From NCBI RefSeq assembly GCF_003019035.1, contig NZ_CP027447.1: a DNA stretch of 64,000 nt. One strand, written 5' to 3'. Shown piece by piece: positions 3,077 through 32,098 of the stretch. Under the pieces are notes generated by a model. It ran no database searches and was not told the DNA's origin. It was given only the letters and a program-made list of their open reading frames with translations. Made by a program: the position numbers and the translations under genes. Position 1 is the first letter of the stretch. Each line of letters starts with the position of its first letter. Source of the DNA: Escherichia coli. Lineage in GTDB: Bacteria > Pseudomonadota > Gammaproteobacteria > Enterobacterales > Enterobacteriaceae.

Positions 3077-3220
3077 CACAACCTCTGTCAGTCATAAATT
3101 TATGCCGGACAAGATAGCACTTTCGTCAGGAAGATGGTGTTGGCGTTGCAATTTTACGAGGAGGATTCAGAAAAAAGCTGATTAGCCAGAGGGAAGCTCA
3201 CGCCCCCCTCTTGCAAATAG

Positions 3221-26178: not shown

Positions 26179-27345
26179 TTAAACCCCTTTGACAACGTCA
26201 GCGTTGACCTGTGGAACCCCGATTTCAGCGGCCAGATTCATGGCGGCTATCACCAGGTTACTGACGGCCAGCGGATACAACAGGCTGACCATATTTTTAC
26301 GATGACTTCCCGGATTGCTCAGGCGGGCACGTATGGCATCCACTGCACTGGCGTCCATAATGTCCGTCAGTTGTTTACCTGCCCGTTGCAGTTTGAACGT
26401 CAGAAACTCTTCAAGGTTATTGTCCAGAGGCAGAAGTTCGACCACCTCACAGCGCTGAACGACTTCACGGACTTCCATATTGCGTTCAGACAGTTTTGTC
26501 GCCAGTTCCGGCTGGCCAATCAGCACGATGGACAGCAGTTTTTTGAAACCGGACTCCAGCTCAAAAAAGCGTTTGAGGTGTTTCAGTGTCGGAATGGGCA
26601 GACTGTGGGCCTCCTCAATCACCAGAACGTGGCTGAACCCCGCCTGGCTGCTGTCTTTCAGGACGCGATGCAACTGGCGAAAGCGGGCGTCCTGACTGCG
26701 TCTGATGCTTTCCAGTGGTGCGATGGTACTGATAATGGCTTCGGCAATAGCTGCTGCCTTCAGGGTTTTCCCTTTCACATCGTTGTCTTCCATAGCGATG
26801 ATGTATGGCTCGATAACAATTACCGGCGCATTCTCGCGGTTGATACGTTCAGTCAGGTCGCGGCGCAGCGTGGATTTACCCGCACCGGACTCACCGATGA
26901 CGGCCATAAACCCACCATGACGGGCTGTCTGGTACAACGCCTCACGCACGTAGCGAATGTCCGGGGTGGTGAACACATCATCAGAACCCTGCATGGCTTC
27001 GTCGGCGAACGGGTCACGGAAAAGACCAAACGCTTTTTTGGTTGCTGGAAATAACACCTGTTTTTTGAGTAACATATTCTCTTCCTCACTGAGGCTCGTT
27101 TTATCTGTGGTACCCGCTGTACGGGGCGTGGCCGCGCCCTGTACAGCATCAAAACTCTTCGCTGTATCAATCCCCTGACTTTCCAGCCAGGACGCAAGAC
27201 GCCGGCGCACTTCTCCGGGGCTGGTGCGGGGCCACGCGTTATGATTCACAATCTGGGCCAGCGTGGCCTCAGAAACATCGACAGCTCTCGCCACCACCGC
27301 CTGTGGAATACGGGCCTCTTTCAGTTGCTGCTTCAGTACCAGCAT
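26179..27345 (-). CDS. Transposition ATPase (Mu B-like AAA+ protein)
   Basis: Walker A GESGAGKST; N-terminal HTH-like region; GAGGAGG RBS; immediately downstream of the transposase. Confidence 0.8.
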   Translation of the reverse strand: MLVLKQQLKEARIPQAVVARAVDVSEATLAQIVNHNAWPRTSPGEVRRRLASWLESQGIDTAKSFDAVQGAATPRTAGTTDKTSLSEEENMLLKKQVLFPATKKAFGLFRDPFADEAMQGSDDVFTTPDIRYVREALYQTARHGGFMAVIGESGAGKSTLRRDLTERINRENAPVIVIEPYIIAMEDNDVKGKTLKAAAIAEAIISTIAPLESIRRSQDARFRQLHRVLKDSSQAGFSHVLVIEEAHSLPIPTLKHLKRFFELESGFKKLLSIVLIGQPELATKLSERNMEVREVVQRCEVVELLPLDNNLEEFLTFKLQRAGKQLTDIMDASAVDAIRARLSNPGSHRKNMVSLLYPLAVSNLVIAAMNLAAEIGVPQVNADVVKGV

Positions 27346-27355
27346 GTTTCCCTCC

Positions 27356-29125
27356 TCAGTTGCCGTTAACAATGCTGATAACGCTGCTGCGGGCCGGCGT
27401 GGTCAGCGTGGCCATGACTTCATCCAGTGCGGCTTCCGGTACGCCGTCCGGGTACTGTGCCGTTAACTGGCGGTAATGTTCCGGCGTCCAGGTAAGGCCG
27501 TCGGCGCTGAACTTATCGCGCAGGGCTTTCGCGGCCTCCACATGAGTCATGGGACGTTGTTCAGTGCGCGGTCTGCGTACATCAGAGGCCTGACCGCGCT
27601 TCGGTATACAGGCCGGAAGTGTGGCGTCATCAATATGTTTATACGGGTCAAGCCGCCCGCCGAACGGCAGCGCCTTCGCCTTGCGTGCGGCAGCTGCATC
27701 TGCGGCGTTGTCTGTACCGGTGACCAGCGCTTCGGTTTCTTTTGCCGCCGTCTGTGCCGGTGTTTCCGGCAGGGCTTTGTAACTTTCGCCAAATACCGCC
27801 GCGCCTTCAGCAAAGCCAAACTCGTTCTTTCTGACCTCTTCGACCAGGAAGAACGTCTCGTGGCCGTCCTCACCGGTCAGAACCACCTGTGCCACATCGC
27901 TGCGCCATGGGTTACGGGTAATCATCAGTTTTTCACCAACCAGTACGCCCGGTACCGTTGATACGTCAAATTCAGTGCCCCGGAACGAGACACGAAGTTT
28001 TGGCGTGACTTTGCGGAGTTCTGGTGTCGTCACAGCCAGTTCACGGCATACCTCAACGGAAGGCGCTTTTTTCAGCTGCTCAGCAGTAATCTTCAGCCAG
28101 ATATCCGTGCGGGTTTTACCGTGGCGGCTGTGAACAGCTGTTGCGTTAAAGTGGCTACGCCATTTCGCGGCCAGCGCGTTGAGTTCTTCCAGACTGTGAA
28201 CCGGCCGGAACTTCAGACCCGGCTCCAGCTTGCGTTCGATAATGTCACGCGCCTTTTCCACCTGTCCGGTGGCGCGGGCGTTATGCGGCTTGTGCGCTAT
28301 CAGGTCGATGCCCAGTGAGCGGCACATGTTTTTCGTCATACCCGCGGTGTTTGCCGAGCCGGGGTCGAGATAGAGTATTTTCGGCACGCCGTGCAGCACG
28401 TCTGCGCCGCCACGCTCCTGCATGGCGTTGATAAGCACAGAACACAGGTTCTCACCGGATTCCGCACCCGTCACATACTCAACGTAAATCCAGCCGCTGG
28501 CATGGTCGGTAATCTCGTAACTCCACACGCGGTCACTGGCGATACGGGCAAGGTTAGCGGGCTTGTTCTTGTAGAACTTCGCGCTGTCCATCACCTGCAG
28601 CCCTTTGTGTCCATTGCTCAGGTAGTAAAGCGTGCAGAGAGAGGCATCAATCTGCCAGACATGATTGGGATGCAGACTGGCCACTTCGGTATGCGGCGCA
28701 GGGGCATCCAGTTGTTCCGGGTGCAGGCCATAGTTACGCAGGGCACGGCTGATAGCATCTTCGGACAACGGGAAAAACTCACCGGTGGTTTCATCTGTTC
28801 TGCCTGCGGAGATAAAGCCGTTAGCCCGCAGGGTTTCCACTGCATCTGCGATGGAATAGAGACGCTTACCGTTCTTGCGGGTGGCCTCACGTAGTGTGGC
28901 AGATATCAGCGCGGCTTCGTCGCGGGTCAGGGCGCTGCGCCCGGCATCGGCGCGTTTTTTGCGTTTATCAGTCACAGAGACCTCCTTCAGCCTGCGCAGC
29001 AGAGTGGCGCGGGACATGCCAAGTTCAGCACAGGCGGCGTCATATATTGCACCACGTTTACCATGCCCCGCGTCACGTGCCGCGCGGGCGACATAAACCA
29101 GTCGTTCAGTCAGGGCAGCATTCAT
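27356..29125 (-). CDS. DDE transposase (Mu A-like)
   Basis: 589 aa; N-terminal HTH-like region, integrase-core motifs (HVWQIDAS, YLDPGSANT). Confidence 0.8.
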   Translation of the reverse strand: MNAALTERLVYVARAARDAGHGKRGAIYDAACAELGMSRATLLRRLKEVSVTDKRKKRADAGRSALTRDEAALISATLREATRKNGKRLYSIADAVETLRANGFISAGRTDETTGEFFPLSEDAISRALRNYGLHPEQLDAPAPHTEVASLHPNHVWQIDASLCTLYYLSNGHKGLQVMDSAKFYKNKPANLARIASDRVWSYEITDHASGWIYVEYVTGAESGENLCSVLINAMQERGGADVLHGVPKILYLDPGSANTAGMTKNMCRSLGIDLIAHKPHNARATGQVEKARDIIERKLEPGLKFRPVHSLEELNALAAKWRSHFNATAVHSRHGKTRTDIWLKITAEQLKKAPSVEVCRELAVTTPELRKVTPKLRVSFRGTEFDVSTVPGVLVGEKLMITRNPWRSDVAQVVLTGEDGHETFFLVEEVRKNEFGFAEGAAVFGESYKALPETPAQTAAKETEALVTGTDNAADAAAARKAKALPFGGRLDPYKHIDDATLPACIPKRGQASDVRRPRTEQRPMTHVEAAKALRDKFSADGLTWTPEHYRQLTAQYPDGVPEAALDEVMATLTTPARSSVISIVNGN

Positions 29126-29128
29126 TGG

Positions 29129-30043
29129 TTATGCCTCCAGCCCGTTAATCTGTGGCGTCGGCTCAGTCAGCCATGAAGGCGCGACATCGCCTGTTGGCTC
29201 GTCCGGCAGGTCAAATGTGGAGCGCAGGCTACGCGCTGTGCTTTCCAGTTGACAGACCAGGCCTGCCATGAAGTCTCTGGGGGTATCAATCATGTTTTCA
29301 GCACAATATGCGCACAGCGTCTCAAAAGCGCTGGACAGTCGAACGGCGATAGCAGATTCCGCCTCAACCGCTAATGCTGTCACTTCCGCCCGCAGCTTCT
29401 TAACCTCTTCATCAGGCTCAGGCGGCTGAATACGGGATTTCTTCTCCAGTTTTGTGGAAAGCGAGTCGATTTTTTCGTTTTTGTCGGCCAGCACGCGCTG
29501 TTGTGCTGCGTTGGTTTCGCGGGCTTCGCGCAGGGCCTGACGCAATTCACGTACTGACATGCGATCAACGTCGTCAAGCGTCAGGCCGGCAACTGTGCCG
29601 CCGTCGGCCAATTCATCAAGTTCTTCATTATCCAGAACCATCAGGTCGTACAGTTTGGCTTTCCCCAAAACGCTCAACGTTGAGCGTTTTGTTGGCTCAT
29701 CACCTTCTCCCAAAAACTTCATACTGGCTTGCATCATGCGGCGAGCAACTTGTGGTGCAAGTCCGAGTTCATTTTCTAAAATGTTTGTAAAATCACCGTG
29801 TGGCTCATTTTCTTTTAAGATGATCAGCCGTTTACCCGCTTCCAGCATAGATTCAGCACTCTGCGCCATATAAAAACGTGCTTCGTGAACAATGCGATCA
29901 CGTTCATAAGGCAGTCCATCACCAAACTGCTGCATAATTTCCATGCGATGCTGTGTCATAGCGTTCAAATTGACATTGATGTTATCTGACAGCGGAACCT
30001 CAACATTCAGTTCAGTGTTAACGGGTGATTTGGTGCGTCCCAT
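29129..30043 (-). CDS. Hypothetical conserved early protein (304 aa, coiled-coil C-terminal half)
   Basis: ORF between the Ner-like genes and the transposase. Confidence 0.5.
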   Translation of the reverse strand: MGRTKSPVNTELNVEVPLSDNINVNLNAMTQHRMEIMQQFGDGLPYERDRIVHEARFYMAQSAESMLEAGKRLIILKENEPHGDFTNILENELGLAPQVARRMMQASMKFLGEGDEPTKRSTLSVLGKAKLYDLMVLDNEELDELADGGTVAGLTLDDVDRMSVRELRQALREARETNAAQQRVLADKNEKIDSLSTKLEKKSRIQPPEPDEEVKKLRAEVTALAVEAESAIAVRLSSAFETLCAYCAENMIDTPRDFMAGLVCQLESTARSLRSTFDLPDEPTGDVAPSWLTEPTPQINGLEA

Positions 30044-30053
30044 TGATTACTCC

Positions 30054-30425
30054 TTACAAACGACTACCTGAAATAACTCGTTGGTTGATTTCGTTAATAC
30101 GATCCTGTGCACGCGCCATCTCGTGACTGTGAGCCATGGCGATCTGTAGTAACTGGATTCCCGGTGCGAAACGTCCGTTCTCTAATTTCATGGCCAGTCC
30201 CTCTTCAATAAGGGTATTAAGTGCTCGATTGATATTCGCCGGGGACTCCCCCAGGGCTGATGCCAGTTCACCGTTAGAAACACCGTTCAGAGCATGACCG
30301 CGTAGAGCTTTGAGTACACGTAGGATGCGGCTCCCGGAACTGGAAATATTTACTTTACTCATGTCACATTTCCATTTTTGCAATATGTGATAACCTGTTG
30401 CATATGTGGAAAATTTATGCCGCAT
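30054..30425 (-). CDS. Putative winged-helix DNA-binding protein
   Basis: SRILRVLKALRGHALNGVSNGELASALGESPANINRALNTLIEEGL resembles MarR/IclR-type wHTH; start uncertain (alternative Met at 30362). Confidence 0.45.
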   Translation of the reverse strand: MRHKFSTYATGYHILQKWKCDMSKVNISSSGSRILRVLKALRGHALNGVSNGELASALGESPANINRALNTLIEEGLAMKLENGRFAPGIQLLQIAMAHSHEMARAQDRINEINQRVISGSRL

Positions 30426-30603
30426 TTGACGTGGGTTTTAATCCCAGTTTTACGGCAATTTCATGGGCTTTGCCGTAACGAGCTTTGGTCTGTCCATTGA
30501 GAACACGATAGACCTCATTGCGGCTGTAGCCGTGTTCTTCGGCCCAGCGGGTAAACGTGATACCACGCTGACGGAAGAGATTTTTAACTTGTTCGGAAGT
30601 CAT
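30415..30603 (-). CDS. Small HTH DNA-binding protein in the Ner position (first gene of the early operon)
   Basis: 62 aa with AGGAG RBS; divergent from the repressor gene. Confidence 0.55.
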   Translation of the reverse strand: MTSEQVKNLFRQRGITFTRWAEEHGYSRNEVYRVLNGQTKARYGKAHEIAVKLGLKPTSNAA

Positions 30604-30689
30604 TGTTGTCTCCTTTGTTGATGCAATGATGTTTGTTTTATATGTGATAGATTATGTGAACTATTGTTCTCATTGTCAATGAGGTTTAT
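30604..30689. promoter_or_regulatory. Divergent early/repressor promoter-operator region
   Basis: 86 bp AT-rich spacer between divergent starts; three direct copies of TATGTGA (30641, 30653, 30687). Confidence 0.55.
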
Positions 30690-31115
30690 GTGAATTTTGA
30701 TTCTCTTTGCGCGTCGCGGTTCAAAGCTGAGCGTTCGCGGTTATCACTCAAGCAGGCTGAAGTAGCAGCCCTTTGTGGCGTTTCAAGAGAAATGTGGGGG
30801 AAATATGAACGAGGGGTTGCTGTTCCCGGAGGTGAGTTACTTGCAGCCTTTGCAAGAATTGGGGCCAATGTACAGTTCATTCTTACCGGGGAGTCATCAG
30901 GTATAACTTTATCACGTGATGAAATGGAGTTACTGCAGCACTACCGGCAAGCACCGTTACAGGTCAAAGGTTCAGTTTTGTCGGCTTTGACTACTGGCTC
31001 CTCCAGAGAACGGGCGGAACAGGTTATTCATGGAGATGTTCTGGGGAATGTTATCAAAGGTAACGTAACCATAGGAACAGGTGGAATAATGAACAAAAAT
31101 ACCAAGAGAAGATGA
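30690..31115 (+). CDS. Prophage repressor (XRE-family HTH)
   Basis: GTG start with GAGG RBS; HTH LSLKQAEVAALCGVSREMWGKYERG; divergent from the transposition operon. Confidence 0.75.
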   Translation: MNFDSLCASRFKAERSRLSLKQAEVAALCGVSREMWGKYERGVAVPGGELLAAFARIGANVQFILTGESSGITLSRDEMELLQHYRQAPLQVKGSVLSALTTGSSRERAEQVIHGDVLGNVIKGNVTIGTGGIMNKNTKRR

Positions 31116-32098
31116 GTAAAGAGAAGCAAACAGTTAACGGGGATGTGGGTAACGTTGTCAGCGGTGATGTTACCATTCATAACTATTCTGCTGACATACT
31201 TCCTTCTGCCCAGCAACCAATTTCGTTGCTGCAAAAACGCGATTTACACAGATTGATGGATGAATTGGTTGATCTGGGGGAAAGTAAGCGCGAGCTATGG
31301 ATGACGATCCACACGAAACTTAATACCAAAACAGTTAATGAAATGACTGCGGCTGATTATCATGGTGCGGTTGAGATCCTTCAGAGATATGCACAACAGA
31401 TCCAGAATATGAAGGACTGTAATCTTCTGGTCAGCAAAATAATGGCGCTTACTGACCCTGGGTATCGTCTTGACCGTGACAGATACTGTCTGAAGCATTT
31501 CGGTACAACCCATCTTAAAGGCCTGGACAAAGAGCAGTTGCAGGCTGTGTTTGGTTATTTTGATGATCTGCTGAATATTCGTGATGAGAGTAAAACTCTA
31601 TCACCTCCATCGGAAAGCGGTGCAAAATCAGTCGCAACTGTACCAACCAGAAGCCGGAAGCCTCATGTAGTAGTGTTGGGGGGAGCGTTAGTTCTTGTAG
31701 CAATATTTTTCGTGGGAATGATTGTGTTCGCTGGTAAATGGGGAAATGCTAAAGCAGTAGCTTCTACTGAAACCAGCGTTTTTAACATTAAAACCAACGA
31801 CAAAATAATAGAAGATTCCATCCCCGCACTGCGCAGCATGTTTCCAGGATTAAATAAGTACTCAGATGATTTCCATTCGGTTTCAAGCTACAAGCAAAAA
31901 ACGGGCTGGCATACCCTTAAATTTACTGTATCAGCAAAGGCATCCGTCCCCGAAAATTATAGTGTTAAGGGCAAGGTTTGTTACATTAACATAAACCCTG
32001 ATGGTAGTTATGCTCGGGTTTTGACTGCTCCATGTCGTTCACTGCTACTTGATCAGCAAAGCACTCCTGACAGTAAGTACCGTTTTATTCTTAAATAG
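31112..32098 (+). CDS. Hypothetical single-pass membrane protein (moron), translationally coupled to the repressor
   Basis: ATGA overlap with the repressor stop; markedly AT-rich; one TM segment (VVVLGGALVLVAIFFVGMIVFAG) between N- and C-terminal domains. Confidence 0.6.
   Translation: MSKEKQTVNGDVGNVVSGDVTIHNYSADILPSAQQPISLLQKRDLHRLMDELVDLGESKRELWMTIHTKLNTKTVNEMTAADYHGAVEILQRYAQQIQNMKDCNLLVSKIMALTDPGYRLDRDRYCLKHFGTTHLKGLDKEQLQAVFGYFDDLLNIRDESKTLSPPSESGAKSVATVPTRSRKPHVVVLGGALVLVAIFFVGMIVFAGKWGNAKAVASTETSVFNIKTNDKIIEDSIPALRSMFPGLNKYSDDFHSVSSYKQKTGWHTLKFTVSAKASVPENYSVKGKVCYININPDGSYARVLTAPCRSLLLDQQSTPDSKYRFILK

Follow-up and report, generated by a model that had tools for sequence, protein, structure and literature searches.

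Gene content of the early region

The stretch of DNA analysed here (64,000 nt of Escherichia coli contig NZ_CP027447.1, hereafter the window) contains the early region of a BcepMu/B3-like transposable prophage, in which a minus-strand early operon and a plus-strand repressor gene diverge from a short control region. The principal genes are the following:

26179-27372, minus strand: MuB-like AAA+ ATPase, beyond the transposase in the early operon
27356-29125, minus strand: DDE transposase with an rve domain (open reading frame list and Pfam)
30054-30362, minus strand: small IclR-type helix-turn-helix (HTH) protein of 102 aa, second gene of the early operon (Pfam HTH_IclR, 28.9 bits; phrog_1368)
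30415-30603, minus strand: 'Ner-like' small HTH protein of 62 aa, first gene of the early operon, BcepMu gp16 family (NCBIfam TIGR04111, BcepMu_gp16)
30690-31115, plus strand: putative lysogeny repressor of 141 aa with a GTG start and an N-terminal XRE-type HTH (open reading frame and Pfam)

It is the DDE transposase together with the MuB-like AAA+ ATPase that identifies the element as a transposable phage. To the left of the control region the minus strand encodes, in order, the 62-aa HTH protein, the 102-aa IclR-type protein, a DUF3102 protein, the transposase and the MuB-like ATPase; to the right, the plus strand encodes the 141-aa XRE-type protein followed by an overlapping 328-aa open reading frame. 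A gp16-family protein, a DDE transposase, a MuB-like ATPase and a divergent repressor gene together make this a BcepMu-like early region. The window DNA matches the Bcepmuvirus phage PhiKM, with a weaker match to Pseudomonas phage B3, and its early operon shows 81–84% DNA identity to those of the BcepMu/B3-like phages (Escherichia phage PhiKM, Klebsiella phage KP12), with which it has the gp16, IclR-like, DUF3102 and transposase genes in common. The early module is present in 623 of 5,426 complete E. coli genomes, and this particular immunity type in about 124. The literature searched contained no description of operators for BcepMu-type phages, nothing on a dyad of the TGAGAAC type, and no binding, footprint or transcription-start data for this phage.

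Two of these proteins are of direct concern to the switch. The 62-aa protein matches TIGR04111 with 94.4 bits against a cutoff of 34 and falls in phrog_925; it is 'Ner-like' by position and size only, as Pfam returned nothing but a sub-threshold HTH_31 match, no PDB match to Ner was found, and a place in the Mu Ner/Nlp family was not borne out by these searches. The 141-aa protein has an N-terminal HTH_31/HTH_3 domain (30.7 bits, cutoff 27, and 23.2 bits, cutoff 23, respectively) that is related to those of P22 C2 (PDB 1adr, E=9e-5) and 434 cI (PDB 1per, E=0.02), the closest solved structures.

An early promoter and two dyads

The original prediction had placed a set of short repeats where the repressor gene and the early operon diverge, and this location is correct. 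The elements that we distinguish there are:

30604-30650, minus strand: conserved 5' leader of the early transcript, including a GGAG ribosome-binding site (30613-30610)
30641-30647, plus strand: TATGTGA copy 1, at the predicted Pe start and inside the conserved early leader
30651-30679, minus strand: early promoter Pe, with -35 TTGACA (30679-30674), a 17-nt spacer and -10 CATAAT (30656-30651)
30655-30672, no strand assigned: O1, the putative main repressor operator, an 18-bp dyad TGTGAAC-TATT-GTTCTCA, which holds TATGTGA copy 2 (30653-30659)
30689-30706, no strand assigned: O2, a weaker 18-bp dyad TGTGAAT-TTTG-ATTCTCT, which holds TATGTGA copy 3 (30687-30693)

Pe matches the promoter consensus at 11 of 12 positions and is the only strong promoter-like site in 30000-31200. 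It faces the gp16/Ner-like gene, which it is predicted to drive from a transcription start that would lie near 30643-30645, and its -35 and -10 are kept in 36 non-redundant relatives. O1 fills the spacer of Pe and overlaps the -10. It agrees with the consensus TGAGAAC-N4-GTTCTCA at 13 of 14 positions, most relatives agreeing at all 14, and where the start of the repressor is known the dyad begins 34–37 nt upstream of it. O2 lies 34 bp from O1, and the relatives carry a second site of the form xTGAAY-N4-RTTCTC on the start codon. The real repeat in this region is formed by these two sites: a repeat finder returned a 24-nt direct repeat, 30652-30675 and 30686-30709, with 79% identity, each copy of which is a dyad.

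Conservation was examined in two directions. A search with the repressor protein gave 49 viral-contig loci with repressors 39–99% identical, and the conservation set comprised 36 non-redundant loci (repressors 40–99% identical), which are not phylogenetically independent. Throughout these 36, the block ATTA-TGAGAAC-N4-GTTCTCA-tTGTCAA, comprising the -10, the dyad and the -35, is kept, and both dyads hold their positions; one relative, L022, carries a symmetric change in both arms of O1 (TGCGAAC..GTTCGCA). In the reverse search, the pattern TGAGAACN4GTTCTCN2TGTCAA had 24 exact occurrences in 2.9 million viral contigs, all on repressor-type loci. An open reading frame homologous to the repressor begins 30–36 nt downstream of the pattern in 22 of the 24. 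The helix reads (V/I)SRE(M/I)WGKYER in 21 of these, and L153 has a more divergent form, VSREIVGRYER; of the other two occurrences, one runs off the end of its contig and in the other the start is uncertain. Among complete E. coli genomes, none of the 124 that match is identical to the window over 30630-30712, each differing by at least one base. In a typical one the sole difference across 30600-30720 is an A at 30657, which gives a perfect palindrome.

Two further sequences of similar appearance were rejected as operators. A dyad-like TGAGAAC-CTGT-GTTCTG within the transposase gene (28438-28454) is probably a coding coincidence; the heteroimmune L004 has it too, but L018, which keeps the same operator type and has a repressor 63% identical to that of the window, does not. 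A TGAGAAC within the gp16 gene (30498-30504) stems from conserved V-L-N codons, occurs in heteroimmune relatives too, and is not correctly spaced from any right half-site.

Heptamers and dyads compared

The repeats that first drew attention to this region are three copies of TATGTGA, reported to begin at 30641, 30653 and 30687. They are indeed exact on the plus strand (30641-30647, 30653-30659 and 30687-30693), and the last, which had been said to overlap the repressor start, spans the GTG at 30690. The three lie within 53 bp, copies 1 and 2 being spaced 12 bp, and a fourth copy on the same strand at 30384, 257 bp from the cluster, brings the number to four within 310 bp. The heptamer shows no enrichment over the 64,000 nt as a whole, with 7 matches where 5.5 are expected. 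Locally, TATGTGA reached four copies in 0 of 20,000 dinucleotide-preserving shuffles of 30340-30720, and any 7-mer at all did so in 62 of them (0.3%), while three copies of any 7-mer were reached in 788 shuffles of 30604-30700 (3.9%). Since few shuffles reach the same copy number, the clustering is modestly non-random.

This excess above the local shuffle level on one strand, the 12-bp spacing of copies 1 and 2, and the use of TATGTGA as an operator half-site by an L016-type relative all speak for the model first put forward, in which the 7-bp repeats are themselves recognition units, bound in tandem by the repressor and/or the Ner-like protein. We nevertheless consider it improbable. In the 12 close relatives of the same immunity (L005-L015 and L019), copy 2 reads TATGAGA in 10, TGTGAGA in L005 and TATGTGA only in L015, and it is again TATGAGA in a typical complete E. 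coli genome with this immunity region; across the wider set the half-site TGTGAAC is found in only 3 of 36 relatives, the consensus being TGAGAAC. Copy 3 becomes TGTGTGA or AATGTGA in some relatives that are 94–99% identical, its TA varying even among close ones, and the TA of copies 2 and 3 is thus not kept as part of a repeat. A 7-bp unit also ignores the conserved right half-sites. Finally, copy 1 and the copy at 30384 occur in phages with unrelated repressors as well; lying in DNA common to heteroimmune phages, they are not specific to this repressor.

From these comparisons, the exact heptamer is not the conserved unit, and the three heptamers seem to have three separate origins. Copy 2 reads as the TA of the Pe -10 joined to the left half-site of O1, and it spells TATGTGA only because position 30657 is T and not the consensus A. 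Copy 3 reads as two bases of the ribosome-binding-site spacer, the GTG start and the first base (A) of codon 2, which jointly make up O2's left half-site. The left ends of the 24-nt direct repeat correspond to copies 2 and 3. What is conserved is the two 18-bp dyads, with consensus TGAGAAC-N4-GTTCTCA, of which the heptamer covers the left edge plus unrelated neighbouring bases. The proposal that the repeats are operators for the repressor and/or the Ner-like protein survives to the extent that copies 2 and 3 overlap very probable repressor operators; the 7-bp unit itself is unsupported.

A host factor offers another way to read the same bases. TGTGA is the half-site of CRP, and the switch of phage Mu uses IHF; TGTGA cores could on that ground be half-sites for CRP or for another factor such as IHF, coupling the switch to host physiology. 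This is scarcely credible here, as no TGTGA-N6-TCACA site within three mismatches overlaps any of the copies, so that they were rejected as CRP sites, and no IHF consensus site within one mismatch is present in 30340-30720.

We put at roughly 78% the probability that the region is a lysis/lysogeny switch with two 18-bp dyad operators for a P22/434-type HTH repressor, and not a 7-bp repeat. A repressor dimer on O1, between the -35 and the -10 of Pe, would exclude RNA polymerase and in doing so would silence the early operon (gp16/Ner-like, small IclR-like, DUF3102, transposase and MuB-like ATPase genes). Sequence and its comparison provide the promoter match and the dyads, as well as the evidence that the dyads are conserved and covary with the recognition helix; from these we infer binding, repression and cooperativity on the part of the repressor. 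The dyads explain incompletely the local heptamer excess (0.3% of shuffles), copy 1, and a 10-mer, ATATGTGATA, shared by two sites.

The second dyad and the repressor start

O2 begins one base before the GTG and covers both this start and codons 2–6 of the repressor gene, such that its conservation could in principle reflect the protein or the DNA. The codons were compared in 30 loci whose O2 contains an in-frame start. Where codon 5 specifies serine (27 loci), TCT is used in 26; the last base of codon 4 is T in 29 of 30, even though eight different amino acids are encoded there; and the first base of codon 6 is C, likewise in 29 of 30, although the residue may be Leu, His, Arg or Gln. The start itself is GTG in 22 of 30 loci, an over-representation that agrees with a G at dyad position 2. 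Fixed bases at synonymous sites and codon boundaries, combined with varying amino acids at codons 4 and 6, indicate that O2 is selected as DNA and not as protein alone. The converse, that O2 is not an operator and owes its likeness to O1 to selection on the N-terminal peptide MNFDSL, can draw on the fairly conserved residues N2, F3, S5 and L6. We find it quite improbable: it does not account for TCT in 26/27 and T-TCT-C in 29/30 where the residues at codons 4 and 6 change, nor for GTG starts enriched as the dyad predicts, and heteroimmune types carry their own palindrome copy on, or immediately before, their start codon.

Taken as an operator, O2 would most likely provide cooperative binding with O1 and/or negative autoregulation. 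Its regulatory logic is a guess, because the repressor promoter could not be placed: in a promoter scan, the best candidates for a rightward promoter of the repressor gene match only 7 of 12 positions. One of these is ATGATG-16-TG-a-TAGATT (30626-30653, 7/12), in which TG-a-TAGATT (30645-30653) is a possible extended -10 whose TG overlaps TATGTGA copy 1.

The annotated start of the repressor differs among database entries. RefSeq uses the same GTG start in L005, and in the two E. coli genomes that we inspected (L159 and L160, positions 125-283) it gives a repressor of 153 aa (WP_001259267.1), starting at an ATG inside the Pe -10/O1 region. In the window (30654-30692), the T at 30657 turns this upstream ATG into ATG-TGA. 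Since only 13 of 30 relative loci have the upstream ATG in frame, the conserved start is the GTG/ATG inside O2; on this comparison the 153-aa annotation is probably an over-extension, and the present analysis corrects what is likely a mis-annotated RefSeq start codon.

Immunity types and the cassette boundary

Four heteroimmune E. coli variants match the window from the early genes to about 30656, in the Pe -10, and then diverge, and the immunity cassettes of PhiKM and of most E. coli copies also differ from that of the window, with homology stopping at the Pe -10, about 30656. In alignment A1 (columns 312-320), heteroimmune homology ends exactly at the Pe -10 hexamer (window 30651-30657). The heteroimmune Pe sits at the same place, with a -35 of TTGATA, TTTACA or TTGACT, 17 nt, and [A/C]ATAAT, and each type has its own palindrome in the Pe spacer and a different recognition helix:

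Heteroimmune spacer palindromes: TGCTCATAATTATGAGCA; TATCCCAAAAATGGGATA; TGGTG-N10-CACCA; in viral contigs, TGTCTAATTTTTTAGACA among others

A second copy of the palindrome, at or just before the start codon of each type, is weak (10–13 of 18–22 positions). In L004, the palindrome of the A20-type immunity (3150-3170) is TATCC-CAAAAATG-GGATA, of the form TATCC-N8-GGATA, as is the HipB operator.

L016/L017 (2390-2900) carries a natural chimeric repressor, the C-terminal half of which is nearly identical to that of the window. Its HTH differs (AGIKRETWSRYESG, versus CGVSREMWGKYERG in the window), and its operator, TATGTGATC-AATA-AGTCACATA, is unlike the window's, so that judging by its sequence the chimera would be in effect a natural helix-swap experiment. 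Operator and recognition helix thus covary in silico, both among the heteroimmune relatives and in the L016 chimera.

The immunity cassette, made up of the -35, the operators and the repressor gene, appears from these alignments to be exchanged as a unit at the Pe -10 junction, an instance of immunity-type swapping at a promoter hexamer. A broader reading can be assembled from this and from the preceding sections. In it, the Pe -10 would be a fixed junction at which the -35, O1, O2 and the repressor gene are swapped between phages that keep the gp16 module; O2 would be dual-coded with the first six codons of the repressor across a wide family of transposable-phage repressors; and the T at 30657 would be a natural variant of the O1 half-site that weakens the palindrome and removes the in-frame upstream ATG. 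On these three propositions taken jointly we are evenly divided. If true, a dual-coded O2 would force a GTG start as well as an N-terminal peptide of the form M-N-F-x-S-L.

The early leader and the element downstream of gp16

TATGTGA copy 1 lies outside both dyads, in the leader of the early transcript. The 53-nt leader block, from the Pe -10 to the gp16 start, has a mean pairwise identity of 0.879 over 28 non-redundant loci, whereas third codon positions in the neighbouring gp16 gene reach 0.616 in the same 28; the leader is as conserved as gp16 codon positions 1 and 2 and, by this measure, is evidently under purifying selection. It is common to heteroimmune phages, and travels with the gp16 gene and not with the repressor gene. 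The leader (30604-30650) may be regarded as a candidate binding region for the gp16/Ner-like protein, which may have a role in the switch. Copy 1 may belong to a gp16 operator or to the promoter of the repressor gene. Its exact match to the heptamer depends on two bases, which occupy the two variable columns of the leader; most relatives read ACACACA in its place.

A specific form of this idea, compatible with the dyad-operator account of copies 2 and 3, is that copy 1, and possibly the element at 30384, is an operator of the gp16/Ner-like protein, and that gp16 turns down both Pe and the repressor promoter in the manner of Mu Ner. We regard this as possible rather than probable. The conservation of the leader relative to third codon positions (0.879 versus 0.616) and its inheritance with gp16 across immunity types are consistent with it, as is the 10-mer ATATGTGATA, common to both sites (30383 and 30640). 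Also consistent is the co-occurrence of a leader variant, CATAGT..CATAGTTGTAT, with replacement of Asn29, at the start of the predicted recognition helix, by Tyr or Ser, although this is covariation between closely linked sites with few independent events. Further points weigh against it: the bases that complete the heptamer of copy 1 fall in variable columns, the leader element varies among relatives independently of the one downstream of gp16, and no homology of gp16 to Mu Ner was detected. All of the gp16 proteins with Tyr or Ser at position 29 (L083, L091, L098, L100 and L102; upstream of 1501) carry the leader variant CATAGTACAAACATAGTTGTATCA, which forms a direct repeat ACATAGT-N4-ACATAGT with an 11-bp period. 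The association between residue 29 and the leader may be protein-operator covariation or just linkage.

Downstream of gp16, the following pair had been described as related to the heptamers:

30380-30390 and 30400-30409, plus strand: GCAATATGTGA / GCATATGTGG pair, in the gap that separates the gp16 stop from the following gene

Both members are present, but they do not form a conserved pair, as only the first lies in a conserved element. In an alignment of six E. coli-type sequences, 14 of the 16 positions in the core of this element, C-ATATGTGATAA-CT (30381-30396), do not vary, whereas 30403-30409 is not conserved, the TATGTGG at 30403 reading TATATGG in a relative that is 96% identical. Relatives carry either GTAAmAGrTTATCACATATyGCAAAA (in the orientation of gp16) or the variant GTGTAACAGTGTTTCATATATAGAAAAGAGG. 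The element at 30376-30396 is widespread among relatives and is retained irrespective of the gene beyond it, with GTGTAACAGTGTTTCATATATAGAAAAGAGG taking its place in a further set of them. An inverted repeat at 30369-30412 gave a hairpin no better than those of shuffled sequences (z=-0.66), and an Rfam search of 30000-31200 returned only a chance microRNA match (E=0.67). Phage Mu has an internal promoter, Pe* (PMC3820752), and by analogy the 30376-30396 element could be an internal promoter of this kind, or else a gp16 site; these are only ideas.

Comparison with known switches

Taken together, the sequence features are those of an ordinary P22/434-style switch inside a Mu-like prophage. The DNA-binding domains of P22 c2 and 434 cI are of the same fold class as that of the window repressor. 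P22 C2 binds 18-bp rotationally symmetric sites in which the outer bases are conserved and the central 4 bp are variable and not contacted (PMC4267663), the same 7-4-7 layout that is seen in the window. In the P22 and 434 switches, as here, the operator overlaps the lytic promoter and there are several sites of graded quality; in the window, the rotationally symmetric O1 lies in the Pe spacer, and 18 bp is within the 14–18 bp typical of such operators. The window departs from these systems in having two sites 34 bp apart rather than three in tandem, in having the second site inside the repressor's own first six codons, and in being carried by a transposable phage. It also departs from them in that no S24 self-cleavage domain was detected in the repressor (no Peptidase_S24 match in Pfam at E<=0.01), which makes induction via RecA-stimulated cleavage unlikely.

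With phage Mu the window shares order and logic, the repressor gene being divergent from an early operon that encodes a small DNA-binding protein and then the transposase and ATPase (PMC3820752). It differs from Mu in that the repressor has only an XRE-type domain and none of the Mu-repressor type, the operators are two short dyads and not Mu-type repeat arrays, no IHF consensus site is found, and the Ner-like protein belongs to the BcepMu gp16 family and not to that of Mu Ner. The operator repeats of Mu are arrayed over about 200 bp. The window accordingly lacks the Mu-type domain, the operator arrays and the IHF site that characterize the Mu c repressor/O1–O3 system. A third comparison is with SinR of Bacillus subtilis, another protein of the XRE family with an XRE-type HTH. 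Its motif, GTTCTYT, resembles the window half-sites GTTCTCA/ATTCTCT, although the inverted repeat tested for SinR, GTTCTCT-AA-AGAGAAC, has the opposite arrangement to the window dyad (PMC3163267). Beyond fold class, no specific homology links SinR and the window repressor, and the likeness of the motifs is treated as a coincidence.

No new regulatory principle is revealed by this switch. The main value of the analysis lies in the candidate dual-coded O2, the apparent cassette junction at the -10 hexamer and the probable start-codon error in RefSeq. The switch of a Mu-like prophage found in hundreds of sequenced E. coli is now mapped in testable form, the map spanning the predicted promoter, the two putative operators, the probable true start of the repressor and the cassette boundary.

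Outside its DNA-binding domain, the C-terminal 70 residues of the repressor match no Pfam family. The C-terminus (RAEQVIHGDVLGNVIKGNVTI, 31011-31073) resembles the N-terminus of the product of the overlapping 328-aa open reading frame (KEKQTVNGDVGNVVSGDVTI, 31118-31177; BLASTP E=3e-4), which belongs to phrog_10002 and has a weak, sub-threshold Flk-like N-terminal region. Judging from this similarity, a motif for interaction or oligomerisation might be common to the two.
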